A DNA stretch of 28,657 nucleotides from Escherichia phage ST-T-K. This document shows, one piece after another, positions 1-12,710 of the stretch (positions within the stretch are counted from its first letter, which is position 1; every line of letters starts with the position of its first letter). Location of the stretch: sequence record OR992647.1; one strand, 5' to 3'. Both the position numbers and the translations under genes were made by a program. The notes below the pieces were generated by a model, which ran no database searches, was not told the origin of the DNA, and saw nothing but the letters and a program-made list of their open reading frames with translations.

Positions 1-2
1 TA

Positions 3-1127
3 CTGGTCAACGACGACATGGTGAAACAGTGCGACGCGTACATCGACCACTGGCGGCCCCTCCTTGAAGTAGCGGAGTTTGTCCAGCTTGAGATGCGCGC
101 CGATCTCACCCGTGTCTTGCATCCGGGCTTCGAGATAGACGGCAACAAGGTGAAGACGTTCGGTACTGCCGATATGGTCATGGTCATGAAGAAGACCGAC
201 GGCACGTACATGCTTATTGTTGGCGACCTGAAGACCGGGCGACATAAGGTCGAGGCGAAAGAAAACAAACAGCTTATGTTGTACGCGCTGGGACTGCTGC
301 GCAAGCTGCAAACCATGTACGACATTACGACCGTTCGCCTGGTAATCTTCCAGCCGTATTGCGGCGGGGCGTCGGAGTGGGATATTACAGTGGAAGCGCT
401 GGAGATATTCGCTAAGTTTGCGTCCAAGCGAGCGCTCGCGGCACTGGACGCGTATTCCCGCGGCAAGAAGGGACTTACCCGTGCCGACTTCCGACCGAGC
501 GTTGACGCCTGTCAGTGGTGCCGATTTGCGGATCAGTGTAGTGCCCGCGCTAAGGCCGCCATCGACACGATGACCCCACCAACGGCAACAGACGACGACC
601 TGGCGGACGACGTGAGCGTGGCGACAGAAGAAGAATGCGCCAACCACGACCGCAATACAGCCCGCGAAGCCCGGAAAGCGGCACGACGTGCGAAGCGCGG
701 CGATAAGGAAGAATCCAATGGCGCTATGAGCGCGGCGGAACTGCGTAGGGCATACGAAGGTCTTGACGCAATGCGCCAGCACATCAAGGCTATCGAGTCC
801 GCAGTATTCAAGGCCGTAATGGCGGGTGATGGCGAATCGCTGGGCCTCAAGATGGTTGCCGGCAAGGAAGGTAATCGCAAGTGGGCGGACGAGAGCGAAG
901 TGATTGAAATCTTCACGAAGGCCCGGATCAAGCGCGATGTAATGTATAAAGAAACATTGCTCAGTCCTACGGATGCCGAGAAGGTATTGAAGGACGAGAA
1001 ACCGAAAGTGTGGGCGAAGTTGTGTGATAAAATCACGCGCGCCCCGGCTAAACCGGTATTGGCACCAATCGACGACCCGCGCCCTGCGTGGTCAGAAGCT
1101 ACCGACGAGGATTTAGGTAATGAATAA
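3..1127 (+). CDS. PD-(D/E)XK nuclease, Cas4/RecB-like with Cys cluster (DUF2800-like); 5' end probably outside window
   Basis: Reading frame is open from the window edge to the first ATG at 18, which has no Shine-Dalgarno. Motifs TADMVMVMKK and LIVGDLKTG fit the D and D-x-K elements of RecB-type nucleases. Cys cluster CQWCRFADQC follows. C-terminal half is Lys/Ala/Glu-rich. Stop at 1125-1127. Confidence 0.55.
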   Translation: MVNDDMVKQCDAYIDHWRPLLEVAEFVQLEMRADLTRVLHPGFEIDGNKVKTFGTADMVMVMKKTDGTYMLIVGDLKTGRHKVEAKENKQLMLYALGLLRKLQTMYDITTVRLVIFQPYCGGASEWDITVEALEIFAKFASKRALAALDAYSRGKKGLTRADFRPSVDACQWCRFADQCSARAKAAIDTMTPPTATDDDLADDVSVATEEECANHDRNTAREARKAARRAKRGDKEESNGAMSAAELRRAYEGLDAMRQHIKAIESAVFKAVMAGDGESLGLKMVAGKEGNRKWADESEVIEIFTKARIKRDVMYKETLLSPTDAEKVLKDEKPKVWAKLCDKITRAPAKPVLAPIDDPRPAWSEATDEDLGNE

Positions 1128-1362
1128 AGTATTCGCATTCGTATTGATGATTATGCTCGGCGCGCTGGGCTTTATCCTGCATTGCGTGCAGGGCGTGTTA
1201 ATGGCGGCCTGGATGATTCGCCATCCGTCCCGCTGGCTGGACGACGGATATAGCGACGTCGCCGTCGACTGGGTTGCGAAGCACATCGACCGCCCGCCGT
1301 TAAGCTGGATCGAGAACGCCACCAACTACGTGACACGAAATCTTTTTAATAAAAGTGCTTGA
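1120..1362 (+). CDS. small membrane protein (one N-terminal TM helix), unknown function
   Basis: ATG at 1120 overlaps the upstream stop by 8 nt; GAGGA at 1107-1111. Hydrophobic segment FAFVLMIMLGALGFILHCVQGVLMAAWMI. Confidence 0.45.
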   Translation: MNKVFAFVLMIMLGALGFILHCVQGVLMAAWMIRHPSRWLDDGYSDVAVDWVAKHIDRPPLSWIENATNYVTRNLFNKSA

Positions 1363-1387
1363 CCGCTTAGACGCAACCAAGTAAATT
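1359..1387 (+). promoter_or_regulatory. candidate sigma70-type early promoter (TTGACC-17-TAAATT) overlapping two GCAACCAAG direct repeats
   Basis: TTGACC at 1359-1364, 17-nt spacer, TAAATT at 1382-1387. GCAACCAAG at 1373-1381 and 1389-1397, which is the reverse complement of the TTGGTTGC element seen at other early intergenic sites. Confidence 0.35.
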
Positions 1388-1451
1388 AGCAACCAAGCCG
1401 AACGGGGTGGCTAACAATAACCCCGATACATGCGAAATGAGGAATTTGAAA

Positions 1452-2240
1452 ATGGCTAAAGTCAACCTGAAAAATGTACGTGTATGCTTCCTGAAAATTT
1501 GGGAACGTGATACTCCTAAACAGGATGGACAAAAACCGGCATACCGTGCCGTGATTCTTCTTGATAAAGAAGATCCGCAGGTGGACAAAGTGGAAGCGGC
1601 AGCGCGCGCAGTGCTTACCGACAAGCTGAAATCCGAGAAGAACGCCGATAAGTGGATGGACCGCCACTACGCCCAGGATTCTAAGGAATGCGCGGTTCGT
1701 GACGGTGACGAGCGCGACGAAGTAACCGAAGAGTTTGAAGGCATGTTGTATATCAACGCCAAATCGTTCAAACAGCCTAACATCCAAACGTCACTGGGCG
1801 AGAAGCAGACCGAACAGGGTCTGACTATCGACGGCGACGAGATCGAAGGCCAGGAAATCTATTCCGGTTGTTATTGCAACGTGTCCCTGGATATTTGGGC
1901 GTGGAACAACACCAACGGCAAAGGCCTCGGTGCCGGTTTGATGGGTCTTCGCTTCCGCGACGACGGTGATTCCTTCGGTGGCGGCGGATCTTCTTGCTCC
2001 GACGATGACCTGGGTGACGATGACGAAGATGAAGCACCGCGCAAGTCTAAGAAGTCCAAACGTCGTGACGACGAAGACGAAGACGACAAGCCGCGCAAGT
2101 CCAAGAAATCCAAGCGCCGCGATGACGACGACGAAGACGAGGAAGATGAGAAACCTCGCAAGCGTCGTAAGTCCCGCGATGACGAAGATGAGGACGAAGA
2201 CGACGAAGACGAAGCACCACGTAAACGTCGCCGCCGTTAA
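1452..2240 (+). CDS. ssDNA-binding protein, T7 gp2.5-like (DUF2815-like) with repetitive acidic/basic C-terminal tail
   Basis: ATG at 1452 with GAGGAA at 1439-1444 (7-nt spacer); the ORF track's upstream GTG at 1407 lacks an RBS. Architecture resembles gp2.5-type SSBs (N-terminal MAKVNLKNVRV, glycine-rich segment, charged tail). Sits between nuclease and polymerase. Confidence 0.6.
   Translation: MAKVNLKNVRVCFLKIWERDTPKQDGQKPAYRAVILLDKEDPQVDKVEAAARAVLTDKLKSEKNADKWMDRHYAQDSKECAVRDGDERDEVTEEFEGMLYINAKSFKQPNIQTSLGEKQTEQGLTIDGDEIEGQEIYSGCYCNVSLDIWAWNNTNGKGLGAGLMGLRFRDDGDSFGGGGSSCSDDDLGDDDEDEAPRKSKKSKRRDDEDEDDKPRKSKKSKRRDDDDEDEEDEKPRKRRKSRDDEDEDEDDEDEAPRKRRRR
2001..2237 (+). repeat. in-frame imperfect tandem repeats encoding alternating poly-Asp/Glu and PRKSKKSKRR blocks
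   Basis: Translation shows DDDEDEAPRKSKKSKRRDDEDEDDKPRKSKKSKRRDDDDEDEEDEKPRKRRKSRDDEDEDEDDEDEAPRKRRRR; the underlying DNA shows repeated gacgaagacga / ccgcgcaagtccaag units. Confidence 0.7.
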
Positions 2241-2258
2241 GGGCAAAGCCCACTATTC

Positions 2259-2285
2259 AAGCCCGCTTAATGCGGGCTTTTTATT
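2259..2285 (+). terminator. rho-independent terminator after SSB gene
   Basis: Stem GCCCGC (2261-2266) / GCGGGC (2272-2277), loop TTAAT, then TTTTTATT. Confidence 0.7.
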
Positions 2286-2298
2286 AGGACAATGAAAA

Positions 2299-2469
2299 AT
2301 GCGTATTAAAGCCAGTGAAGTAAAAGTCGGAATGCGTGTGTGGTCCAAATTGCTGGGCGAGTATTTTACCGTTGCCGAGATTCGCAACAACGGCGAAGAG
2401 ATTGCCCTTTCCGACGGTATCTTCTCCATGATCGGCAGCGCTGACGCCGTAGTGAGGATAAAGCAATGA
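2299..2469 (+). CDS. small hypothetical protein (56 aa), translationally coupled to DNA polymerase
   Basis: Not in the ORF track (under 60 aa). ATG at 2299 with AGGA at 2286-2289; translates MRIKASEVKVGMRVWSKLLGEYFTVAEIRNNGEEIALSDGIFSMIGSADAVVRIKQ; TGA at 2467-2469 overlaps the polymerase ATG at 2466 (ATGA). Confidence 0.4.
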   Translation: MRIKASEVKVGMRVWSKLLGEYFTVAEIRNNGEEIALSDGIFSMIGSADAVVRIKQ

Positions 2470-4757
2470 AAGACTTAGAACGCCTATTTCTCGACACCGA
2501 GACGTTTAGCGGGGTGGACCTGAAGAAAGCAGGTGCGTATGCCTACGCGGAACACCCCACCACCGAGATTATGATTTGCACCTACGCCATCGACGAGGGC
2601 CGCGTGCAGACATGGGACGCCACTGAATCCCCAACAATGCCGCGTGAACTGCGCAAGGCGCTCCGCCGCGTATCCCGCAAGAAAGCAAAAATAGTGATGG
2701 CTAACGGCCTCCTGTTTGACCGCCTGGTTATCCGTGAAAAGTGGGGTATCGACCTGCCGGTAAGCCAGATCGAAGATACTATGATTATGGCCTTCCGACA
2801 CGCGCTGCCGGGTAGCCTCGATATGCAATGCCAGGTGCTGGGCGTTGACGCAGAGCACGCGAAGGATAAGGCGGGCAAGGCGCTGATCAAACGGTTCTGT
2901 AAGCCTACCCCTAAGACCTACAAAATCCGCCGCTACACCCGCGACACACACCCTGAAGAATGGGCTAAATTCCTGCGCTATGCCGCGCTGGATATTATCG
3001 CAATGCGTGAAGTCTACTGGCGCATACCGGACTGGGGTAACACGCCGAAGGAAGACGAAATCCTGCTTATTGACCAGTTGATTAACGACCGTGGCTTCTA
3101 TGTGGACGTTGACCTGGCTAACGCCGCGATCAAGGCGGTGCAGGTGCATAAAGAGGAATTGAAGGAAGAAGCCTGGGAACTGTTCGGCGGTAAGCTGACC
3201 GGCAATGACTTCCTGCCAATCCTGCGTGATATTGCCCCGGCGTTCACAATTCACAACGCGCAGAAATCCACGCTGAATGACTTGCTGGAAGATCCAGACT
3301 TCCCCGACGAGGGCAAAGTGCTTATTGAGATGCGCCTCGGTGCGTCATCAACGGCATCGACTAAATACAATCCGCTCGTAAACGGTCTTTCTGCCGATGG
3401 TCGCCGCCGTGGTTGTCTTCAGTATGGTGGGGCAAAGCGCACACTACGCTGGGCTGGTAAAGGCTTTCAACCTCAAAACCTGGCACGTGGCGAGTACAGT
3501 GATGACCACGAAGGGAAGATTAAGCGCCGCGAAGGTGAGAGCGACGTCTCGTTTTGGGTACGGTCGCACATGCTCACCAACGGCATCAACTCCCTGTTAC
3601 GCGGGACCGCGCACTGGGCGTATGACATATCGAAGCTGACCGCCTCGACCGTTCGCGGGTGCATTATCCCGGCTAAGGGCAAGAAGTTTGTCGTAGCGGA
3701 CTACTCCAACGTGGAAGGGCGCGGCCTTGCCTGGATCGCAGGCGAGAAAACCGCATTAATGGTGTTTAAGGCCGGACGCGATATCTATTGTGAAACTGCC
3801 GGTAAGATGTTCGGCCTCGACCCGGACTACATTAAAGCCAACCGCAAAGACTTGCGCCAGATTGGTAAGGCGTGTGAATTGGGGCTGGGCTATGGTGGCG
3901 GCGTTGCTGCGTTCTTGCAATTCGCTAAAAACCTGGGCCTCGACCTGTACGCAATGGCTGACGTCATGAAGGGTACATTCCCGGATCACATTTGGGCGGC
4001 GGCGAAGCGAGGCTATGAGTTTGCCCGCATCAACGAAGCGAAGCGACCGCCGAAGCCGGGCAAGAAAGACGAGCGCCCAACCTACATACTGCCTAAAAAT
4101 GTATGGTTGACCTGTGACGCGATTAAACGCATGTGGCGTGAGTCTCACCCGAAGACCGTAGATTTTTGGTCCGAGCTTGAGCACGCGGTGTTAAACGCAA
4201 TACGCAATCCGGGTAAGGCATACTGGGCTGGCGCGAACGTTCGCCCGGATGGTAAGAAAGCGCTCAAAATTGTTCGCACGAAGGCGAAGCATGACCCAAC
4301 CTTCGACGAGGAGCGCGACGACCCGAACGCGGCGGGCTGGTGGCTGAAGGTTGAGTTGCCGTCCGGGCGAATCATGAGCTACCCCGGCATCGCGTTGTCT
4401 GTCACTACCGAGATTGACGAAGACACCGGCAAGAAGCGCACCAGCACTCGCATAAAATACCAGGGCGAGAATCAGACTACGCGCCAGTGGGGATTCCAGT
4501 ACACCTACGGCGGCAAACTGACGGAGAACATCGTACAGGCGTTGTGCCGCGATATCCTCGCATGGTCCATGCCTGGTGTCGAAGCTGCGGGCTATGAAAT
4601 CGTCCTGTCAGTGCATGATGAATTGATCACCGAAGTGCCAGACACAGACGACTACACGACCGAGGAGCTATGCGCGCTGATGTGCGACCTGCCGATATGG
4701 GCGAACGGTTTCCCACTTGCCGCCGAAGGCGACATTATGTACCGGTACAGGAAGTAA
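2466..4757 (+). CDS. DNA polymerase, family A (Pol I-like) with N-terminal 3'-5' exonuclease domain
   Basis: 763 aa. N-terminal Exo I motif DTETFSG; polymerase motif B RQIGKACELGLGYGGG; motif C LSVHDELITEV. Confidence 0.9.
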   Translation: MKDLERLFLDTETFSGVDLKKAGAYAYAEHPTTEIMICTYAIDEGRVQTWDATESPTMPRELRKALRRVSRKKAKIVMANGLLFDRLVIREKWGIDLPVSQIEDTMIMAFRHALPGSLDMQCQVLGVDAEHAKDKAGKALIKRFCKPTPKTYKIRRYTRDTHPEEWAKFLRYAALDIIAMREVYWRIPDWGNTPKEDEILLIDQLINDRGFYVDVDLANAAIKAVQVHKEELKEEAWELFGGKLTGNDFLPILRDIAPAFTIHNAQKSTLNDLLEDPDFPDEGKVLIEMRLGASSTASTKYNPLVNGLSADGRRRGCLQYGGAKRTLRWAGKGFQPQNLARGEYSDDHEGKIKRREGESDVSFWVRSHMLTNGINSLLRGTAHWAYDISKLTASTVRGCIIPAKGKKFVVADYSNVEGRGLAWIAGEKTALMVFKAGRDIYCETAGKMFGLDPDYIKANRKDLRQIGKACELGLGYGGGVAAFLQFAKNLGLDLYAMADVMKGTFPDHIWAAAKRGYEFARINEAKRPPKPGKKDERPTYILPKNVWLTCDAIKRMWRESHPKTVDFWSELEHAVLNAIRNPGKAYWAGANVRPDGKKALKIVRTKAKHDPTFDEERDDPNAAGWWLKVELPSGRIMSYPGIALSVTTEIDEDTGKKRTSTRIKYQGENQTTRQWGFQYTYGGKLTENIVQALCRDILAWSMPGVEAAGYEIVLSVHDELITEVPDTDDYTTEELCALMCDLPIWANGFPLAAEGDIMYRYRK

Positions 4758-4761
4758 TATT

Positions 4762-4953
4762 ATGAAAGCAGAATTAAGCATAATGCGCGCTGGCGCGACG
4801 GACGATGACGAGATTCGAATCGTCCTTAGACTGGAACGTGGCAAGACCATAACGGCGCTTGTCTCGCCTGAAAACCTGGCGCTGGCGCTAACCGGTCGGT
4901 CTGACATACCGGTAGACCTCCGTCTGCGTAACGTGGAGTTGCAAACCAAATGA
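4762..4953 (+). CDS. hypothetical protein (63 aa)
   Basis: ATG at 4762, 4 nt after the polymerase stop; ends in ATGA overlap with the next gene at 4950. The track's longer version starts inside the polymerase gene. Confidence 0.45.
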   Translation: MKAELSIMRAGATDDDEIRIVLRLERGKTITALVSPENLALALTGRSDIPVDLRLRNVELQTK

Positions 4954-5228
4954 CTCCAGAAGGCAAGATACAAAGTCACCTGATGAAGCTGGTTAAAGCC
5001 GTTGGCGGATTCTGCCGTAAGGTGATATGGGAGGGGCGCTCAGGTGCGCCCGACCTGATTATTATCATAAACGGCAGAGTAGTATTCGTCGAAGTGAAGC
5101 GCCCCGGCGGAAAACCGAAGCCGCACCAGGTGCGAGAACATGAGCGAATGGCCCGCCGCGGTGCTGACGTTCGTGTTATAGACACCATAGCCGACTGTGA
5201 TTTATTGGTTGCTGAATTGGTCGCGTAG
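4950..5228 (+). CDS. VRR-NUC domain nuclease (PD-(D/E)XK)
   Basis: 92 aa; motif GAPDLIIIINGRVVFVEVKRPGG carries the PD...(E)VK signature; C-terminal HQVREHE is typical of VRR-NUC. Confidence 0.8.
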   Translation: MTPEGKIQSHLMKLVKAVGGFCRKVIWEGRSGAPDLIIIINGRVVFVEVKRPGGKPKPHQVREHERMARRGADVRVIDTIADCDLLVAELVA

Positions 5229-5237
5229 CGGTATAGT
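5205..5237 (+). promoter_or_regulatory. candidate early promoter with paired TTGGTTGC / TTGGTCGC elements
   Basis: TTGGTTGC at 5205-5212 and TTGGTCGC at 5217-5224; -35-like TTGCTG at 5209-5214, 17-nt spacer, TATAGT at 5232-5237; precedes the ATG at 5269. Lies within the 3' end of the VRR-NUC gene. Confidence 0.4.
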
Positions 5238-5268
5238 GTGCCGGTTAGCCCTATCGAGGATTTTAGAA

Positions 5269-5442
5269 ATGATTGAAGAAAAACGTTGTAGTAATTGCGG
5301 CTGTATCAAGCCGCTATCCCAGTTCCACAAATACACCGGGAAGACCGCGCGAAGTCCGGACGGGCATCGGGCCGAGTGCAAATCGTGCCGCAATAAGAAA
5401 GAGCGTGAACGGCAGCGCCGCTACCGCGCAGAACAAGAATAA
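5269..5442 (+). CDS. zinc-ribbon protein with basic C-terminus (candidate DNA-binding regulator)
   Basis: ATG at 5269 with GAGGA at 5256-5260; CSNCGC ... CKSCRNKKERERQRRYR gives a C-x2-C ... C-x2-C arrangement plus Arg/Lys-rich tail. Confidence 0.55.
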   Translation: MIEEKRCSNCGCIKPLSQFHKYTGKTARSPDGHRAECKSCRNKKERERQRRYRAEQE

Positions 5443-5449
5443 TCAATAC

Positions 5450-5472
5450 GGCGGGCTTGTCCCGCCCTTTTT
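5450..5472 (+). terminator. rho-independent terminator
   Basis: Stem GGCGGG (5450-5455) / CCCGCC (5461-5466), loop CTTGT, then C plus TTTTT (5468-5472). Confidence 0.65.
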
Positions 5473-5484
5473 GGAGACATGACG

Positions 5485-5703
5485 ATGAAAGAACATTACC
5501 GACTCACCAAGCTGGGCGAGTGCAAACCAGGTGATCGCGTGTGGTTTATTGCGGGCATGAATCACCCGCTGCCGCTGACAGTGTGCTGGCAGAAGTTTAA
5601 GAGCTTCCGCTCGACCGGTGTGCACATCGGACACGCCACCAACTACGACGCCACAAAGAGGAACTGGAACTGTGAAACCGAAGTCTGGAAAAAGGCGGAA
5701 TAA
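5485..5703 (+). CDS. hypothetical protein (72 aa)
   Basis: ATG at 5485 with GGAGA at 5473-5477 (7-nt spacer); stop TAA at 5701-5703, 4 nt before the helicase start. Confidence 0.5.
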   Translation: MKEHYRLTKLGECKPGDRVWFIAGMNHPLPLTVCWQKFKSFRSTGVHIGHATNYDATKRNWNCETEVWKKAE

Positions 5704-5707
5704 AGAG

Positions 5708-7132
5708 ATGGCAAGATTCCGACGTCGCGAATACCAGAAGTTGATAACCGCGTTTATTCTCAAGCACGAACGTTGCAATATTTGGGCGACAATGGGATCC
5801 GGTAAAACCGGCGCGACTATGTGGGCGCTCAACAAAATGTTCCAGACTGGCATCCTATCCAACCAGGAGGACCGCGTACTGGTGCTGGCCCCGCTGCGCG
5901 TTGCGTCGGGTACGTGGCCCCCGGAACAAGAAAAATGGAGATTCCCCGCCCTGCTGGTGGTAGACGGCACCGGGCCGGAGAAGGACCGCATTGCAGCGCT
6001 TGAAAGCGACGCTAACGTGGTTTGTGTTAACTACGATGTGGTTGAGTGGCTTGTAGAGTATTGCGGCGACGAGTGGCCTTTTACGGTCGTTGTTGCCGAT
6101 GAATCCACTAAGCTGAAAGGCTACCGCAGTAAGCAGGGCAGTAAGCGCGCACGCGCACTGGCGGCGATTGCACATAAGCACGTCAAGCGCTGGATCAACC
6201 TGACCGGCACGCCAGCACCAAACGGACTGAAAGACCTATGGGGTCAGACGTGGTTTGTCGACGGTGGCGAACGCCTCGGCAGTAGCTATCAGGCATTCAC
6301 CGACCGCTGGTTTATTAGCAAGCCTGTTAAGCCAGGCAGCTTCACTATGCAGCACGCCCCGCTCAAGAACTCCGAGAAGGAGATCCAACAACGCCTGTCA
6401 GACGTGTCGCTTACCGTTGATGCGGCTGAATACTTCGGATGTGACAAGCCAATCTATACGCCGGTTGTTGTGGACCTGCCGAAGAAAGCCCGCAGGATTT
6501 ACGACCAGTTCGAGAGCGAGCTATTTGCCGAACTGGAAAGCGGAACAGTGGAAGCGGCGAACGCTGCGGCGAAGACCATCAAGTGCCTCCAGCTTGCTTC
6601 CGGGGCCGTGTATAAGGTGGACGAGGACGGCGAACGGACCGACGAGTGGGAGAAGATTCACGACGCCAAGCTGGACGCGCTGGAAAGTATAGTAGAGGAG
6701 TTGAACGGCGCGCCGTTGCTCGTTGCGTATCAGTACAAGCACGACCTGGCACGTCTGAAGAAGAAATTTCCCCACGGCGTTGCGATGGGTAAGGGTAAGC
6801 AGGGTAATAAGGATATGGAAGCGTGGAACAGGGGCGAGATTCCCATCATGTTCGCACACCCAGCATCAGCGGGTCACGGCCTCAACTTGCAGGACGGAGG
6901 TCATCACCTGGCTATCTTCTCAGATACGTGGAACTATGAGCACTTTGCGCAGATCGTGGAGCGTATCGGGCCGGTCCGCCAGATGCAAGCCGGACACCCT
7001 CGACCGGTATTCGTCTATATTATCCAGGCACGCGGAACACTGGACGAACTGGTGGCCGACCGCCGCGACGGTAAGCGCGATATCCAGGACGATTTGATGG
7101 AATATATGAAAGCTAAGAAGGTGCGCAAGTGA
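5708..7132 (+). CDS. SNF2/DEAD-like superfamily 2 helicase
   Basis: Walker A MGSGKTG; motif II VVVADESTKL; C-terminal helicase region HPASAGHGLNLQDGGHHLAIFSDTWN. Start ATG at 5708 chosen over the track's upstream start, which overlaps the previous gene. Confidence 0.85.
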   Translation: MARFRRREYQKLITAFILKHERCNIWATMGSGKTGATMWALNKMFQTGILSNQEDRVLVLAPLRVASGTWPPEQEKWRFPALLVVDGTGPEKDRIAALESDANVVCVNYDVVEWLVEYCGDEWPFTVVVADESTKLKGYRSKQGSKRARALAAIAHKHVKRWINLTGTPAPNGLKDLWGQTWFVDGGERLGSSYQAFTDRWFISKPVKPGSFTMQHAPLKNSEKEIQQRLSDVSLTVDAAEYFGCDKPIYTPVVVDLPKKARRIYDQFESELFAELESGTVEAANAAAKTIKCLQLASGAVYKVDEDGERTDEWEKIHDAKLDALESIVEELNGAPLLVAYQYKHDLARLKKKFPHGVAMGKGKQGNKDMEAWNRGEIPIMFAHPASAGHGLNLQDGGHHLAIFSDTWNYEHFAQIVERIGPVRQMQAGHPRPVFVYIIQARGTLDELVADRRDGKRDIQDDLMEYMKAKKVRK

Positions 7133-7824
7133 TTATCTGGTCATTATTCGACGGCAGCGGCTTGATGATAGAGCGTGCTGCCGAGATGGGGCATAAGTGC
7201 TACTGTTTCAACTACTCCGAAGCCGATCACGGGTCTTACCTGGACTACCGGATTTATGGGCGCGGTATCCGCTATCGTAATGAGTTTATCGATCTGGACT
7301 TCGTGGACCGAGCTATGAATGGCGATTTCGGCACGCCGGATATTATCTACGCGTTTCCGCCGTGCACGGATCTAGCGGTTAGCGGTGCGCCAGCTTTCCC
7401 GCGCAAGCGTGCGAACGACCCAGCCTTTCAGCTTAAGGCCGTGCGCACCGCGAAGATTGCCGCTTACCTGGGTGACTTCTTTGAAGTGCCATATATGATT
7501 GAAAATCCGCGCAGTGTGCTATCCACCCAGTGGCGCAAGCCCAACCACTCGTTTGATCCGTGGGAGTACGGCGGATATCTGCCGGTGGATGACGTGCATC
7601 CGTTGTTCCCGGAATACATCAACGACCGCGATTCATATCCAAAGCTGACCTGTTTATGGACTGGCAACGGCTTTCGTATGCCAGAGAAAAAGCCGGTATT
7701 CGTTGAAAAAGGGTACTCGAAGCAGTATAGTCGCCTCGGTGGCAAATCTGCCCGCACCAAATTAATCCGGTCGCTCACTCCGCGCGGCTTCGCAATAGCA
7801 GTCAATGAGGAAAATTTAAAATGA
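7129..7824 (+). CDS. C5-cytosine methyltransferase-like protein, minimal (no recognisable target-recognition domain)
   Basis: GTG at 7129 overlaps the helicase stop (GTGA). Motif I-like LFDGSG, motif IV-like FPPCTDL (Pro-Cys), motif VI-like IENP. Only 231 aa. Confidence 0.55.
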   Translation: MIIWSLFDGSGLMIERAAEMGHKCYCFNYSEADHGSYLDYRIYGRGIRYRNEFIDLDFVDRAMNGDFGTPDIIYAFPPCTDLAVSGAPAFPRKRANDPAFQLKAVRTAKIAAYLGDFFEVPYMIENPRSVLSTQWRKPNHSFDPWEYGGYLPVDDVHPLFPEYINDRDSYPKLTCLWTGNGFRMPEKKPVFVEKGYSKQYSRLGGKSARTKLIRSLTPRGFAIAVNEENLK

Positions 7825-8144
7825 ATACTACATTCGAAGCCATCGACTTCTCGGTCGCAATGACTAACCAGTTATTCACCTACGACAGTAAGACCGGCGT
7901 CATCCGTCTGAAGTCCACCGGCTGCAAGATTGGCAACCTCAACACTGCCGATGGCGGCACGCGTATCGAATGCAACGGCAAGACGCTGTCTGGCGCGCGC
8001 GTGGCGTGGATTATTGAGACTGGCAATACAATCCCTCCCGGCTTCGCCGTTGTGTGTCGCCAGCGCACGCCAGGACACTACGGCAACCGCATGAGCAACC
8101 TGTATTTGGTAGACGTAGCGCGCGACCCGAATTTTTATGAATAA
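7821..8144 (+). CDS. hypothetical protein, weak resemblance to a degenerate HNH_3-type domain
   Basis: ATG at 7821 overlaps the upstream stop (ATGA). Segment ARVAWIIETGN ... GHYGNRMSNLYLV loosely resembles HNH_3 domains, but the catalytic His-Asn-His pattern is not intact. Confidence 0.4.
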   Translation: MNTTFEAIDFSVAMTNQLFTYDSKTGVIRLKSTGCKIGNLNTADGGTRIECNGKTLSGARVAWIIETGNTIPPGFAVVCRQRTPGHYGNRMSNLYLVDVARDPNFYE

Positions 8145-8145
8145 A

Positions 8146-8178
8146 TTGGTTGCGTAATTAGGTTGGTTGCATTATCTT
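8146..8178 (+). promoter_or_regulatory. paired TTGGTTGC elements with promoter-like hexamers
   Basis: TTGGTTGC at 8146-8153 and 8163-8170 (17 bp apart), followed by ATTATCTT; possible -35 TTGCGT (8150-8155) and -10 TATCTT (8173-8178). Confidence 0.4.
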
Positions 8179-8180
8179 AA

Positions 8181-8206
8181 GGGTGTCCGGTTGGACGCCC
8201 TTTTTA
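8181..8206 (+). terminator. terminator-like hairpin with T-tract immediately upstream of an RBS
   Basis: Stem GGGTGTCC (8181-8188) / GGACGCCC (8193-8200) with one G-U pair, loop GGTT, then TTTTTAAT. Confidence 0.55.
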
Positions 8207-8224
8207 ATACCTGGAGACATTACG

Positions 8225-8689
8225 ATGAAAATTTTACAAGAAGAGAAAAATTACTGGGCTGCGCAATGCCTCGAAGCCCGCGAACAGGCCGAACGCGCGA
8301 ACGCGCTGGCGGATACATACCTGGCGAGCTACGAAGGAGAGGAGAAGGTGCGCAAGGAGCTAGAGGAGCGCTTCGAACTACTTTTCGAACTGATGGGGAT
8401 TATGCAGCGCACCGGATACACAACCAGCGTTGCGCTAAACCGCGTAACTGCCGACGCCCTGCGTGAGCACTGCAAACGTGCCGAGGAGTACGTGCGTCCT
8501 ATGGGCCGCCGGACTTCGATCCCCCGTAAAGACCTGGTGCTGATAGCGTGGCGCAATACAATAAACGGCAATTATTACTCCGATAATCGCCCGCTTAGCG
8601 CCGAGGAAGCAAAGCGCGTGCAACGCGTCATCGGTAAAGGCGATAAGGTTCCACTATACGCGTTAGACACCGACCATGACGGAGAATGA
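8225..8689 (+). CDS. hypothetical protein (154 aa)
   Basis: ATG at 8225 with GGAGA at 8213-8217 (7-nt spacer); the leader is near-identical to that of the 5485 gene; 3' end overlaps the Dam start by 14 nt. Confidence 0.55.
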   Translation: MKILQEEKNYWAAQCLEAREQAERANALADTYLASYEGEEKVRKELEERFELLFELMGIMQRTGYTTSVALNRVTADALREHCKRAEEYVRPMGRRTSIPRKDLVLIAWRNTINGNYYSDNRPLSAEEAKRVQRVIGKGDKVPLYALDTDHDGE

Positions 8690-9161
8690 GCAGAAGGATA
8701 GCTGGCGCACGCCGCCAGCTTTATTTAAACCGCTGCGCCGCAAGTACCGATTCCGTTACGATATGGCGGCAAGCGACACCAATCACCTGCTACCGCGCTA
8801 CTTCACGGCAGAGCATAGCGCGCTTGATGCGGACTGGTCAGAGTTGAAAGGGTGGAAGTGGTGCAATCCGCCGTACTCCGATCCGCTGCCGTGGGTCGAG
8901 TGCGCTGCGCACGGACGCCGTACTGTCATGCTACTGAATCAGGACACGTCAACGAAGTGGGCGAAGCTGGCCCGGAAGACTGCCAATATGATAATTCTTC
9001 TGGACTGGCGTGTGCGATTCACCCATGCTGTGACCGGCGAAGTTGGGCCGAGCAATAACAAGTGCCAGCAATTGATAATATTTGATGAAGCGCCGCCCAT
9101 CGGCAGCGCACAAATTGAAATAATGAGCGAGAGAGAACTACATGAATATCTTAATCGTTGA
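8676..9161 (+). CDS. DNA N6-adenine methyltransferase, phage Dam type
   Basis: 161 aa with catalytic motif WCNPPYSD (NPPY); size and layout match the small phage Dam family. Confidence 0.8.
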   Translation: MTENEQKDSWRTPPALFKPLRRKYRFRYDMAASDTNHLLPRYFTAEHSALDADWSELKGWKWCNPPYSDPLPWVECAAHGRRTVMLLNQDTSTKWAKLARKTANMIILLDWRVRFTHAVTGEVGPSNNKCQQLIIFDEAPPIGSAQIEIMSERELHEYLNR

Positions 9162-9366
9162 CCGCGACCCCGCGGTAGTAGACCAAATGCAAAGGGACTA
9201 TAACATTGACCCGCGCCGCGACCGTGTGGTGCGCGTATCCCGACCAGAATCCATAATGAGCCTGGACCTTACCGGTTGGCTTGTCATAACCAAGCGTTGC
9301 CATTTCGTATGCAACTCCGTTACTGCGCGAAGCGCCCGTCACACCCTTATTGAGAGCTTAAAATGA
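9142..9366 (+). CDS. hypothetical protein (74 aa), coupled between Dam and the HAD phosphatase
   Basis: ATG at 9142 with GAGAGA upstream; overlaps the Dam 3' end by 20 nt and ends in an ATGA overlap with the next gene at 9363. Confidence 0.4.
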   Translation: MNILIVDRDPAVVDQMQRDYNIDPRRDRVVRVSRPESIMSLDLTGWLVITKRCHFVCNSVTARSARHTLIESLK

Positions 9367-9833
9367 AACTACTGATTTGTGATCTGGATGGCGTTATTAA
9401 TGGTTCAAGTGATGCGCGTGCTGACCTGGTGCCCGGCATAAAAACCAAATCAACCTTTTGGGCGAAGTGGCACAAAGCACACGTACGCGAAGACCTTAAC
9501 ATGGATATGCTGCCGCTGCTGCGCATGTACAAAGCGCAAGGCTTCGAGATAGCGTATCTGACTAACCGGCAGCGCGAATGCTGGGACACGACCGCCAAGC
9601 AATTGGAAGTATTCCCGACGGGCCGGTTGTTCATGCGCCACATGCTGGATGACACCCCACCGCCGGAATTTAAGGCGTGCGCTGTGTTCCAAATGGTTTG
9701 CTATGCGGACGTGTCAGAACTGGTCATCATTGAAGACTGCCCGAAGAATATCGAAGCCATCCGTCGCGCGTGCGGCGATCTGGTCCCGAAAATTTATGCT
9801 ATAAACGTCGCTAAATTCACTTGCAACCAATAG
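9363..9833 (+). CDS. HAD-superfamily phosphatase (possible 5'(3')-deoxyribonucleotidase-like)
   Basis: N-terminal LICDLDGVI fits the HAD DxDG(T/V) nucleophile motif; 156 aa. Confidence 0.6.
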   Translation: MKLLICDLDGVINGSSDARADLVPGIKTKSTFWAKWHKAHVREDLNMDMLPLLRMYKAQGFEIAYLTNRQRECWDTTAKQLEVFPTGRLFMRHMLDDTPPPEFKACAVFQMVCYADVSELVIIEDCPKNIEAIRRACGDLVPKIYAINVAKFTCNQ

Positions 9834-9849
9834 TTGGTCGCATTATAGT
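9821..9849 (+). promoter_or_regulatory. candidate early promoter with inverted TTGCAACCAA / TTGGTCGC elements
   Basis: TTGCAACCAA at 9821-9830 and TTGGTCGC at 9834-9841 form an imperfect inverted repeat; -35 TTGCAA (9821-9826), 17-nt spacer, -10 TATAGT (9844-9849). Confidence 0.45.
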
Positions 9850-9894
9850 TAACTCGTTGGGGGCAATCCGGCCCCCACTAAAAGGAAAAACATC

Positions 9895-10488
9895 ATGAAA
9901 GCATTTGAATACTGCAAGAACGCCGCCACCACTATGGAACAGCGCGGGAAAGAAAACGGCTATGACAACGCGAAAGAAGAACGCAGCGCTAAACAGATCG
10001 CTGCCGTGTTTAACGCGCTTACCGGTCGCGACCTGACCGAGCAAGAAGCCTGGACCTTCCTGATCTGCCTGAAGCTGGTGCGCCAGCACCGTAAGCACCA
10101 GGAAGACAATATTGTTGATCTGGTTGCGTATTCCGCCTTGCTGGGCGAGTCTTACATGACCGTGCATGACGAGATTCAGGTCGATACAACGGCAGCGCAA
10201 TTCGACAGCCTCAAGGGTTGGCCTATCAAGACCAGCGGCGCGTTCAAGCCTTCGGACCTGTCCGTGCGCCTTGACGGCGAGATTAATGCGTATAACAGCG
10301 CAATGCGCGTTGCCGGGGATACGGTGGCCTCGTTCGGAAAGACTGTTAAAGCTGCCAATTTCGGTGTGGCAGATCAAGAAGTACAGCCTATGGTAGTGCT
10401 CACTGGCGAGGATGGGTCCAAAATCCTCATGACGCCGGAAGACTTCCGCAACATGGAAAAAACACTGGTGACTAGCGCACTTAAATAA
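9895..10488 (+). CDS. hypothetical protein (197 aa)
   Basis: ATG at 9895 preceded by AAAGGAAAAA; no motif recognised with confidence. Confidence 0.6.
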   Translation: MKAFEYCKNAATTMEQRGKENGYDNAKEERSAKQIAAVFNALTGRDLTEQEAWTFLICLKLVRQHRKHQEDNIVDLVAYSALLGESYMTVHDEIQVDTTAAQFDSLKGWPIKTSGAFKPSDLSVRLDGEINAYNSAMRVAGDTVASFGKTVKAANFGVADQEVQPMVVLTGEDGSKILMTPEDFRNMEKTLVTSALK

Positions 10489-10530
10489 TTCTAATAGCGG
10501 GCTTCGGCCCGCAGCAATGAGGGCTTCACA

Positions 10531-11106
10531 ATGTACGGCGAATACGAAATAACCGGTAAACAATTCCACATAGCGGCAATGTTGGCGAGCGTCGAGTTTG
10601 ACCAGTGGCGATTAAAGTCTGACGCGTGCAAGCAAAGCCGACTTGTCGGTGTGCTGGGCGAGATGTTTGCGGGCATGTACCTTGAAGGGCAGGCAGGCGG
10701 GCGTAGTTGTATCCCGCAAGGCTTGCTTATGCGTACCGGCCTGTTTAGCGCCAATACTATCGACCGCGGCGATATTATCATGGTCGGTAAACGCAAGGTT
10801 AAGTCCGGCCCCGACTTCCGTGAGCACATGATTGATGCCGTCTGGACCTACGAGGTCAAAGCCACCAGCGGCATCCGTCGCGGACTGGTAGAGGCGCGTT
10901 GCGCTCGCGAGTATCTCACCCGTCGAGTTGCCGGTGTTATCCTGGTGGGCGTATCGTTCGGGCAACATAGCGCACACGGCGTGATTGAGGATATCGCGGA
11001 ACCATACGTGATTGTCAACGACTGGCCGTTGGTGGAAGTAGAAGGTAAGGAGTATTACGAAAGTCCGCTGGTGCGGCGCAAAATGGACTGGGAAAACTCA
11101 AACTAA
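10531..11106 (+). CDS. hypothetical protein (191 aa), possible PD-(D/E)XK-like core
   Basis: ATG at 10531 with GAGGG at 10518-10522; GDIIMVG ... WTYEVKA gives a D ... E-x-K pattern (weak). Confidence 0.55.
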   Translation: MYGEYEITGKQFHIAAMLASVEFDQWRLKSDACKQSRLVGVLGEMFAGMYLEGQAGGRSCIPQGLLMRTGLFSANTIDRGDIIMVGKRKVKSGPDFREHMIDAVWTYEVKATSGIRRGLVEARCAREYLTRRVAGVILVGVSFGQHSAHGVIEDIAEPYVIVNDWPLVEVEGKEYYESPLVRRKMDWENSN

Positions 11107-11130
11107 AAAAGGGGCCGCGTGGCCCCTTCT
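11105..11130. terminator. bidirectional terminator between convergent early and late transcription
   Basis: AAAAAA (11105-11110), stem GGGGCC (11111-11116) / GGCCCC (11121-11126), loop GCGT, then TTCT. Lies between the plus-strand stop at 11106 and the minus-strand stop at 11133. Confidence 0.7.
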
Positions 11131-11132
11131 CA

Positions 11133-12659
11133 TTACTTACCTTCCAGCTTTTCTACTTTCTGCAACAGGTGAACGAAGGCAGCACACAGGTCCATCAACA
11201 GCACGTTACTGTCAAGCGACAGCACATCGTCGGTGTATCCGATCTCCTTTTGCTCGACAATCTCGTTCCCTTCCTCGTCCACGCCAACAACAACGTCCTC
11301 GTAGATTCCATGCCCTGGCAGCAAGTGCACATATTCTGGATCAATCATGGCCAGGTCCTGCGCGATAAGGCCGTAACGCTGTACGTCCGACTCCTTATAC
11401 TTAAACATTGCTGGTAGCCATTGCCGCACTCGGTTGTAACTTTCCGCGCCGTCCGTGTATTGGATTTCTTTCTTCACGTCCCGGTCTGATAGCGGTGCTT
11501 TCTGAAACTCCGACGACGATGGGTTGCCGCTGTTACCCTGAATCAGACGCCCATCCGGCAGGAAGCGGAATAGCGCCTCAGTTTCCCCATTCTTCCACGC
11601 GTGGATCCGGTAGTCTGAAATATGAGTGTCACCGGCACGAACAAGGCCCGCGCGCGCCCAGTCAGCGTACCACTTGTACATTATTTGCCCGACCCAATTG
11701 TCGATGCCCATCGAGGCGTTTGATAGAATTAAGCCGTTAGCCTCCACGTCATTGAATGTTAATGATTCGCCACCGTTCAGGCGTAATGTTGCGTGTTTAA
11801 CGTTACTGTCATCGCCCACCCCCAAAATGTTGCGCGCGGCGTACTTGTCGGCAACGTCCGCTAGGTTCTGCGACTTCTGCATGAACTTAGTGGGGTCGAT
11901 TGCGTTTTTGAAGTCCTCCGCTTCGTCGCGGTATCCTTGCGCTGCATCGCGGGCCGCTTGTGCGTCAGTCTTCGCCGTGTTGGCCTGATCTCGAATAGCG
12001 CCAGTGTCAGTCTTAATTTGATTAGTCTGGTCCTTGATGGACTGCGTATCTGTCTTAATCTGGTCGGTTTGCGTCTTGATCGTATTGGTGGCGTCGTGGA
12101 TTGCCTGCGTATCGGTCTTAATCTGGTCGGTTTGCGTCTTGATCGTATTAGTATCGTTCTTGAAGCCTTCGGCCTCGTCGCGGTATCCTTTCGCTGCGAC
12201 CTCAGATGCGGAGGCTTGTTGTTGCAGGTTGCGCATTTCCACCGGGTCGATCTGCTTCATTAGCTGCGACAGGTAGCCCCATGACATACCCTGCATTACT
12301 GTGCCGTTCGGTAACGTAACTGTGATTTCTTCAGCGTCGCCGAAGATTGCACGCCAGTTGTTCTCGTCCGCAATAAGCATACGCAGTGCTTTCTGTGCCT
12401 GGACTGTTACGCCCATCGTTGCCAGCGACATGGTATCGCGCGCAACGCCATCCCATGCAAGGCCGGATGCCGTCGGGCCGTCAAACGGCAGCACCAAAGT
12501 AAGCCCGGTGTTGCTTTCGATAGATTCGATCGCGATAGTGTAGGGGACTTGCCCCACTACGACAGAAAGGAAATCACCGGCTTTGAACGCCGAAAACGTC
12601 GTACCGGTCCCCGTTACCGACCGGCTGTTATTGGTTAATAAGATAGTACCCGCTGCCAT
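11133..12659 (-). CDS. tail fiber protein with heptad repeats and C-terminal intramolecular chaperone (peptidase S74) domain
   Basis: 508 aa. Central repeats IKTQTDQ / IKTDTQA (~10 heptads) flanked by YRDEAEGFKN and YRDEAEDFKN, reminiscent of T7 gp17-type fibers. C-terminus SDRDVKKEIQY ... YGLIAQDLAMIDPEYV ... LLQKVEKLEGK matches the endosialidase-chaperone autoprocessing domain. RBS AAGAGGA before ATG. Confidence 0.85.
   Translation of the reverse strand: MAAGTILLTNNSRSVTGTGTTFSAFKAGDFLSVVVGQVPYTIAIESIESNTGLTLVLPFDGPTASGLAWDGVARDTMSLATMGVTVQAQKALRMLIADENNWRAIFGDAEEITVTLPNGTVMQGMSWGYLSQLMKQIDPVEMRNLQQQASASEVAAKGYRDEAEGFKNDTNTIKTQTDQIKTDTQAIHDATNTIKTQTDQIKTDTQSIKDQTNQIKTDTGAIRDQANTAKTDAQAARDAAQGYRDEAEDFKNAIDPTKFMQKSQNLADVADKYAARNILGVGDDSNVKHATLRLNGGESLTFNDVEANGLILSNASMGIDNWVGQIMYKWYADWARAGLVRAGDTHISDYRIHAWKNGETEALFRFLPDGRLIQGNSGNPSSSEFQKAPLSDRDVKKEIQYTDGAESYNRVRQWLPAMFKYKESDVQRYGLIAQDLAMIDPEYVHLLPGHGIYEDVVVGVDEEGNEIVEQKEIGYTDDVLSLDSNVLLMDLCAAFVHLLQKVEKLEGK
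12042..12149 (-). repeat. in-frame tandem repeat within the tail fiber gene
   Basis: 45-bp unit ctgcgtatc(t/g)gtcttaatctggtcggtttgcgtcttgatcgtatt at 12042-12086 and 12105-12149 (one mismatch, 63-bp period), within a run of related heptad-coding units. Confidence 0.65.
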
Positions 12660-12677
12660 AGCTGAATCCTCTTAAAA

Positions 12678-12710
12678 TTGGTTGCATTCTTGATTGAGCG
12701 GTGCAATACT
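12678..12710 (+). promoter_or_regulatory. candidate promoter of the moron (TTGGTTGC element, extended -10)
   Basis: TTGGTTGC at 12678-12685; -35 TTGCAT (12682-12687), 17-nt spacer, TG at 12702-12703, -10 AATACT (12705-12710). Lies in the divergent region between the fiber start and the lipoprotein gene. Confidence 0.4.

Follow-up and report, generated by a model that had tools for sequence, protein, structure and literature searches.

Two genes in the replication and DNA metabolism operon of Escherichia phage ST-T-K (OR992647.1) are preceded by a terminator-like hairpin that runs into a ribosome-binding leader. The stretch of DNA analyzed here (28,657 nucleotides [nt] in full, hereafter the window) belongs to a Dhillonvirus, i.e., an HK578/SSL-2009a-like E. 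coli siphophage, with 89 to 94% identity to >150 GenBank genomes. A preliminary description of the window took the two elements (site 1, 5450-5490; site 2, 8181-8230) for a near-identical cassette, and proposed either a duplicated regulatory unit or a shared post-transcriptional control site. Our own reading, to which we assign a probability of about 0.7, is that each site combines an independent terminator with a stand-alone initiation region, and that the two sites are not functionally equivalent. They amount to ordinary operon punctuation, a kind of element already known, and the annotation of a sister genome lists both hairpins as putative terminators.

Both elements run from a hairpin through five Ts into a leader, and the two leaders are identical at 17 of 18 positions (pattern GGAGACAT(G/T)ACGATGAAA). 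Sequence inspection, a pattern scan, BLASTP, and PHROGs bore out the preliminary description on these points and on the unrelatedness of the proteins encoded behind the leaders, of 72 and 154 amino acids (aa), which could not be aligned by BLASTP and were assigned to separate PHROG families. The hairpins had been read as intrinsic terminators, and each does form a stable fold in isolation; both are conserved throughout the genus and annotated as such in phage WFI (MK373791). The 18-mer had been read as a translation initiation leader, and the ATG at its end starts a conserved open reading frame (ORF) at each site. Both ORFs have full-length PHROG matches (phrog_9291 and phrog_10530), and the starts chosen by annotators lie at or near these ATGs. 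Outside the string CGCCCTTTTT and the 18-nt leader, the two sites do not match. They differ in stem length (6 versus 8 bp), in loop, in sequence, and in how far the Shine-Dalgarno (SD) sequence is from the T-run (0 versus 7 nt), so that “near-identical” fits the leader and not the cassette. Conservation of the leader in related phages, whose absence the preliminary description had named as speaking against it, was found for site 1, whereas the spacer of the site-2 leader is not conserved, and the description thus partly fails its own test. A sequence-specific operator extending over the spacer is therefore unlikely.

Structure and conservation of the two sites

Sequence, conservation, fold, and gene content were compared directly in both regions, aligned from 22 to 24 Dhillonvirus loci retrieved from IMG/VR and GenBank. 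They include WFI (L001) and the close relative Bas85 (L030), with a complete 44.9-kb genome and 71 gene starts.

Site 1 is located on the plus strand, behind a small gene coding for a 57-aa Lar-like/zinc-ribbon protein (5269-5442; phrog_5558, Lar-like restriction alleviation protein, E = 3e-16) that the Bas85 annotation labels “moron.” Its TAA stop (5440-5442) is followed by 7 nt, a distance kept in every genome examined, and then by the intrinsic-terminator-like hairpin (5450-5472), formed by GGCGGG-cttgt-CCCGCC (5450-5466) plus C and TTTTT (5467-5472). The six GC pairs have a predicted fold of -11.3 kcal/mol (z = -2.15), and the hairpin was also picked up by a terminator scan. The U-rich tract of intrinsic terminators typically comprises 7 to 9 nt directly 3′ of the stem. 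At site 1, it is short and interrupted (C/A plus U5, then GG), with a T-score of 2.2 and a sub-threshold value of about -17 for d, an approximate d'Aubenton-Carafa-type terminator score. The leader (5473-5490, plus strand; GGAGACATGACGATGAAA) starts right there, with the SD GGAG at 5473-5476, 8 nt, ATG at 5485-5487, and AAA, and opens the 72-aa ORF (5485-5703, plus strand; phrog_9291, E = 2e-46) that is the first cistron after terminator 1. The helicase start (5708) is found behind it. Some GenBank annotators used the ATG at 5479 as the start, which we rejected, with GGAG only 2 nt upstream. An antisense ORF of 182 aa (5443-5991, minus strand) spans the hairpin, the leader, and the helicase start, and is probably spurious. 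In the 22 sequences of this site, hairpin, T-run, leader, and first codons are nearly invariant, above the flanking coding DNA in conservation. The stem is invariant and hence uninformative on the conservation of pairing. The leader is invariant in 20 of the 22. WFI has GGAGGC, as does Bas85, and the deletion found in L005 takes only bases past the 18-mer.

At site 2, the hairpin begins 36 nt past a TAA stop (8142-8144). The intrinsic terminator (8181-8205, plus strand), annotated as a terminator in WFI, consists of GGGTGTCC-ggtt-GGACGCCC (8181-8200) and TTTTT (8201-8205), with eight pairs and a predicted fold of -15.5 kcal/mol (z = -4.67). Its U-tract is short (U5, then AAU; T-score, 3.9), and d is about +23. 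Seven nucleotides (AATACCT) separate the T-run from the SD of leader 2 (8213-8230, plus strand; GGAGACATTACGATGAAA), with GGAG at 8213-8216, 8 nt, ATG at 8225-8227, and AAA. The first cistron after this terminator in the window is the 154-aa ORF (8225-8689, plus strand; phrog_10530, a family named “DNA ligase,” E = 3e-91). In the stem, 98.4% of the alignment cells are in standard pairs (16 distinct variants), compared to 29 to 59% when the 3′ partner is slid, and the variation consists of one-sided wobble changes at three pairs. Two “unpaired” cells are an alignment artifact from L009 and L014, in which the stem has one extra U-A pair and a new loop (fold, -19.1 kcal/mol). The natural hairpin variants all fold, at both sites. 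Conserved at site 2 are the hairpin, the T-run, AATACC, GGAGAC, and ATGA(A/G)A, while the six positions separating GGAGAC from ATG rank with the most variable ones of the region. At least nine variants of this spacer, constant in length, were found among 24 sequences. The commonest is AACACG, and others are GACACG, GACACA, ATCACG, AGTGAG, GGTGAG, AGTGCT, and AGTGAT. The spacer ATTACG is confined to the clade of the window, WFI, and Bas85, and L009 and L014 carry a different SD (GAGGAT). The longer RNA contexts of both leaders showed no significant extra structure (z = -0.92, -0.70, and +0.18) and no convincing alternative fold sequestering the SD.

Similarity of the leaders

A scan of the window for the leader pattern, tolerating up to three mismatches, returned just the two sites, against an expectation of 0.01. 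The identity of 17/18 is a property of a single sub-clade. The value typical of the genus is 16/18, some members have 14/18, and the part common to the whole genus is only GGAGAC-N6-ATGA(A/G)A, which reads as a generic strong SD at a fixed spacing from ATG, with AAA or AGA as the second codon. Twelve of the 18 positions (GGAGAC plus ATGAAA) correspond to a form of translation start that recurs in this phage. In Bas85, GGAGAC-N6-ATG also heads gp49, gp54, and gp62 (four matches, against 0.25 expected), and in most genomes site 1 would be a fifth case; ATGAAA starts 12 of the 71 Bas85 genes. This leaves the 6-nt spacer, for which a match of at least 5/6 was found in 39 of 2,485 gene pairs (1.6%), and the probability of such a match among the 10 to 15 pairs of the start-form class is 0.15 to 0.22. 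The claim that the leaders match more closely than by chance is borderline in a shuffling test given below. We conclude from these comparisons that the leader identity is the sum of a recurrent strong initiation region, of the form GGAGAC-N6-ATG(AAA), and a clade-specific coincidence in the spacer.

Copies of the exact 18-mer were found at the starts of five other ORFs, unrelated and in unrelated IMG/VR contigs; none has a hairpin upstream, and their number is close to chance for a database of that size (four to five by our rough estimate). These five gene starts are the only exact matches outside Dhillonvirus, and the idea of the leader as a mobile cassette was discarded. In Bas85, AC follows the SD unusually often (GGAGAC at six and GAGGAC at five of the 71 starts), something that complementarity to the anti-SD does not explain.

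A variable gene slot behind each leader

Relatives differ in the ORF placed first behind each leader, through deletion, insertion, or replacement, but keep the hairpin and the leader. At site 2, a 243-nt gene is found between the leader and the ligase-like gene in 77 records (WFI, Bas85, and 75 others), about half of the relatives. In WFI (L001, 8326-8568), it codes for an 80-aa protein (phrog_18961) that looks, from its sequence, like a small membrane protein. The window lacks this gene (at 8225 in its coordinates), and ATGAAA repeats flank the indel. In L021 (6506-6620, compared with window positions 8213 and 8676), Dam is directly behind the site-2 leader, and both the ligase-like and the small gene are absent. 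At site 1, the 72-aa ORF is gone from L004 and L005, where a deletion from TGAAA to TGAAA leaves an ORF of 10 codons; an extra G (+1) reinstates the original stop codon beside the start of the helicase gene. The restored stop suggests selection for translation that reaches the helicase start and is coupled to it, and the leader may thus be the entry point of ribosomes into the block.

Promoter-like elements and ATTGGTTGC boxes

A promoter-like element, recognized by phylogenetic footprinting, abuts hairpin 2 (8145-8178, plus strand). It comprises the boxes ATTGGTTGC (8145-8153) and GTTGGTTGC (8162-8170), a -35 hexamer TTGCGT (8150-8155), a 17-nt spacer, and a -10 hexamer TATCTT (8173-8178); most relatives have TTGCAT-17-TATATT. 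The boxes are invariant and the DNA between them is variable, and bases 1, 2, 5, and 6 of the -10 are invariant as well. We take this element as a putative promoter. CATTAT (8170-8175) was rejected as its -10, given that key positions change in L006 and L032, while the flanking T/A of TATCTT/TATATT/TACATT are invariant. The predicted start, at the usual distance (ca. 8183-8186), falls in the 5′ arm of the hairpin because the conserved -10 ends only 2 nt upstream of it. By fold prediction, an RNA starting at 8185 retains just a 4-bp stem.

A similar element precedes the Lar-like gene (5204-5237, plus strand), with the boxes ATTGGTTGC (5204-5212) and ATTGGTCGC (5216-5224), -35 TTGCTG (5209-5214), a 17-nt spacer, and -10 TATAGT (5232-5237). 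Again, boxes and -10 are invariant (21 related loci), and the bases between them vary.

The ATTGGTTGC 9-mer has 15 exact copies in the 44.9 kb of Bas85, compared to ca. 0.3 expected for a 9-mer on both strands. There are four exact copies in the window (5204-5212, 8145-8153, 9823-9831 on the minus strand, and 12677-12685) and four with one mismatch (1373-1381 and 1389-1397, both on the minus strand, 5216-5224, and 8162-8170). The boxes are mostly paired, overlapping the -35 and the spacer beside the -10 of sigma-70-like promoters. Across the genus, boxes and -10s are invariant and the DNA between them varies; the more distant helicase relatives (L016 to L029) have neither ATTGGTTGC boxes nor homologous hairpin or leader elements. 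ATTGGTTGC is likely a phage-specific promoter or operator box. A candidate to bind it is a 109-aa protein of Bas85 (36931-37260, outside the window) annotated as “transposase,” whose C-terminal helix-turn-helix (HTH) matches HTH_23 and Sigma70_r4_2 above thresholds.

Another promoter-like sequence (TTGCAA-17-TATAGT) with an inverted pair of boxes was observed at 9821-9876. About 10 nt past its -10 there is a conserved GC hairpin without a U-run (GGGGGC-aatccg-GCCCCC, 9859-9876), changed on both arms in L015 and L035 (GGGAGGC...GCCTCC). It looks like a stem-loop at the 5′ end of the mRNA whose gene begins at 9895.

Proposed organization of the operon

In the organization that we propose, each element would mark the boundary of a block with the hairpin of a Rho-independent terminator, which would part the next gene from its upstream neighbor and make translational coupling unavailable; for that reason the next gene would carry a strong initiation region of its own (GGAG, 8 nt, AUG, AAA). 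The two sites would do this differently. The weak hairpin of site 1, with its suboptimal U-tract, would close a unit of promoter, small gene, and terminator. We infer that it is a leaky attenuator, read through to express the helicase, because helicase, Dcm, and HNH are located behind it without a recognizable ATTGGTTGC-box promoter of their own. Site 2 would be a stronger terminator, at which incoming transcripts would stop and a new transcript would start. Transcripts from the site-2 promoter would lack the full hairpin.

A more specific version sees in site 2 a composite insulator belonging to a phage-specific class of promoters. The two ATTGGTTGC boxes would be bound by a phage factor, such as the small HTH protein with a sigma-70 region 4-like match seen in relatives, and mark co-regulated middle promoters across the genome, the start would be inside the 5′ arm, and some 60 bp would stop all incoming transcripts and let their own pass. 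This is a tentative proposal, and a rather doubtful one. If it were true, the similarity of the leaders would be incidental, and the hairpin plus leader would be half of a regulated restart module.

Several observations weigh against our interpretation. The putative promoter of site 2 has only 7 to 8 of 12 matches to the sigma-70 consensus, below the scan threshold, and was not flagged. Covariation in the hairpins is weak, with no two-sided substitutions among the variants. The terminator score derives from an old formula fed with modern energy parameters. The conservation of the site-1 leader, which extends to the spacer, exceeds what a generic ribosome-binding site requires. In a column-shuffle null built on the 71 Bas85 starts, the best pair reached at least 17/18 in 1% and at least 16/18 in 4.8% of shuffles, and these values (P of ca. 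0.01 and 0.05, respectively) leave room for some extra leader similarity of other origin. Finally, a literature search for Dhillonvirus promoters, terminators, transcriptome data (Term-seq/RNA-seq), and the ATTGGTTGC 9-mer found nothing specific; it yielded no transcript 5′ or 3′ ends for any Dhillonvirus, and termination (with its efficiency), read-through, and promoter activity are predictions.

Alternative explanations

A phage or host factor recognizing GGAGACAUNACGAUGAAA on both mRNAs, and co-regulating their translation or decay in the way of T4 RegA/RegB, would account for the two leaders being the most similar pair among the 71 starts (16/18 in Bas85, next best 14/18), for the invariance of the site-1 leader down to its spacer, and for the unusual frequency of AC behind the SDs. 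Nevertheless, the spacer of site 2 is free to vary among close relatives, the SD of L009 and L014 departs from the shared one, and the spacer match is at chance level given the class of start site. The annotations of Bas85 and WFI, in which no dedicated profile search was made, list no product similar to RegA or RegB. The shared control site thus found no backing in the comparison, and we consider it very unlikely. The duplicated cassette fared even worse. Copying of a terminator-leader unit, or gene conversion between the leaders, could have produced the shared CGCCCTTTTT, the 17/18 match, and the GGAGACA..ACGATGAAA that most of the genus has at both sites (16/18). However, the hairpins do not align, stems and loops being unrelated in sequence and length, and the T-run is 0 to 1 nt from the SD at site 1 (1 nt in most relatives), compared to 7 nt at site 2. 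In a BLAST search, the 51-nt element of site 1 hit 156 places in 154 records, all Dhillonvirus-like, i.e., about one place per genome, and an exact-pattern scan of IMG/VR found no contig with two copies. Neither is conversion indicated by the clade-specific spacer, since ATTACG, with two differences from AACACG, still falls short of ATGACG. An origin by duplication or conversion therefore seems extremely improbable.

The gene content behind the leaders suggests another possibility, that a leader ending in ATGAAA is a microhomology linker for the gain and loss of accessory genes, and that the similarity comes from the shuffling of modules. The ATGAAA repeats around the 243-nt indel (the gene is present in 77 of roughly 164 Dhillonvirus records), the deletion of L004 and L005, which joins ATGAAA to GTGAAA, and the position of Dam in L021 would all fit. 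Still, microhomologies of 5 to 6 nt are automatic where so many genes start with ATGAAA, the L021 junction is not at ATGAAA, and such a joint accounts for the variability downstream of the leader and not for the conservation of hairpin and leader. As an explanation in its own right it is unlikely; it is compatible with terminators followed by independent initiation regions rather than an alternative to them. Lastly, the hairpins could stop transcription early, with a phage factor, acting at the ATTGGTTGC-box promoters like lambda Q or on the RNA, later carrying the polymerase past them and timing the helicase and ligase/Dam blocks. An essential-looking helicase behind hairpin 1 with no box-carrying promoter, the boxes lying between -35 and -10, a place open to binding by a promoter-loaded factor, and the small HTH protein with a sigma-70 region 4-like match encoded in the early region of Bas85 are in keeping with this regulated read-through. 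Yet passive read-through would suffice at hairpin 1, weak and 7 nt from a stop, hairpin 2 is too near the -10 for promoter-proximal pausing and loading, and no antiterminator homologue is annotated in WFI or Bas85, all of which makes it quite unlikely.

Operon layout

The plus-strand genes from 1 to 11106 are the distal part of a single long co-oriented operon for replication and DNA metabolism, of ca. 12 kb in Dhillonvirus and presumably transcribed by the host RNA polymerase. The gene order is exonuclease, SSB, DNA polymerase, endonuclease, Lar-like, 72-aa ORF, helicase, Dcm, HNH, ligase-like, Dam, PNK, and two more genes. In WFI, a “putative transcriptional terminator” is annotated at the homologues of the hairpins at 2259, 5450, 8181, and ca. 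11111. The first of these belongs to a third terminator and leader of the same design in the same operon (2259-2301, plus strand), AAGCCCGC-ttaat-GCGGGCTT plus TTT, followed by AGGAcaatgaaaaATG with the start at 2299, and its leader differs in sequence from those of sites 1 and 2. The last is an operon-end hairpin (GGGGCC-gcgt-GGCCCC, 11111-11126, not assigned to a strand) between the last plus-strand gene (end at 11106) and the convergent tail fiber gene (end at 11133). A terminator directly followed by an SD also recurs in Bas85 before gp11, gp17, gp45, and gp50, and distant helicase relatives have the generic terminator-then-SD design with unrelated sequences. No Rfam family matched anywhere in the window at gathering thresholds; for five small flanking proteins, Pfam gave no match and PHROGs gave family names only.

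Other features of the operon were observed along the way. The top sigma-70 consensus match of the first 14 kb (7703-7731, TTGAAA-17-TATAGT, 10/12) is inside the Dcm gene, with the HNH endonuclease gene (7821) following ca. 90 nt further downstream, and may be an internal promoter of this homing-endonuclease-like gene. Just past the stop of the ligase-like gene, in the 5′ end of Dam, the scan flagged a hairpin at 8700-8720 (AGCTGGCG-cacgc-CGCCAGCT plus TTATTT) that is conserved in L021. The polymerase gene of Sodalis phage SO-1 (L031, 1-2585) is annotated with a group I intron carrying an HNH endonuclease, unlike that of the window (2466-4757), which is uninterrupted.

The finding itself is minor, standard punctuation by a terminator and a strong ribosome-binding site. 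It does provide a draft map of the Dhillonvirus operon. In this map, a unit of promoter, SSB, and terminator is followed by one of promoter, Lar, and leaky terminator, then by a combined terminator and promoter for a restart ahead of ligase and Dam, and at the end by the convergent terminator; the slot of the first cistron after each terminator is variable. The ATTGGTTGC 9-mer is the more interesting by-product, and a better experimental target for the timing of gene expression in the widely used BASEL-type phages.

Comparison with known systems

Internal Rho-independent terminators or attenuators occur in phage early operons, such as the stops of the lambda tR1/tL1 type, or after highly expressed genes. 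The sites described here resemble them in having a GC hairpin and a U-run between co-oriented genes, downstream genes that need read-through or a new promoter, and an SD of their own. They differ in that no dedicated antiterminator was detected in the annotations, and in the short, interrupted U-tract of site 1, at 7 nt from a stop. Morons, a concept from HK97 and HK022, are promoter-gene-terminator units in phage genomes. Similarly, site 1 closes a predicted promoter (5209-5237 from -35 to -10), the small Lar-like gene, and the hairpin. Unlike a moron, this unit (promoter, start of the gene, and 3′ end of the gene with the hairpin) is present in all 21 related loci, with no presence/absence polymorphism seen, and it has the orientation of the surrounding operon, that of a virulent phage, where expression from a prophage does not apply. 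Post-transcriptional control of early initiation regions is found in T4, in the translational operators of RegA and the cleavage of GGAG SDs by RegB. The likeness is that several early mRNAs share a recognizable sequence in their initiation regions; the differences are the unconserved spacer of site 2 and the presence of the full 18-mer in two genes only.

In promoter-coupled terminators, the -10 is just downstream of the T-tract and the DNA of the stem-loop doubles as the -35 (Fletcher et al. 2026, preprint, doi 10.64898/2026.08.19.745784). The resemblance of site 2 is loose: here too, two adjacent units have their terminator and promoter signals packed into a few tens of base pairs, but the promoter-like element of site 2 is upstream, with the -10 ending before the hairpin. 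Inspection of 5467-5490 and 8201-8224 found no TAnnnT -10-like hexamer after the T-runs, and this model was rejected for both sites. A further parallel might be the masking of terminators by ribosomes. In a plasmid reporter, the terminator lambda tR2 (not a Dhillonvirus hairpin) was almost fully repressed at 8 to 9 bp from a stop codon and maximally active beyond 30 bp (Li et al. 2015, PMC4824070). By this measure, site 1, at 7 nt from the stop of the Lar-like gene, would be in the repressed range, and site 2, at 36 nt, in the fully active one.

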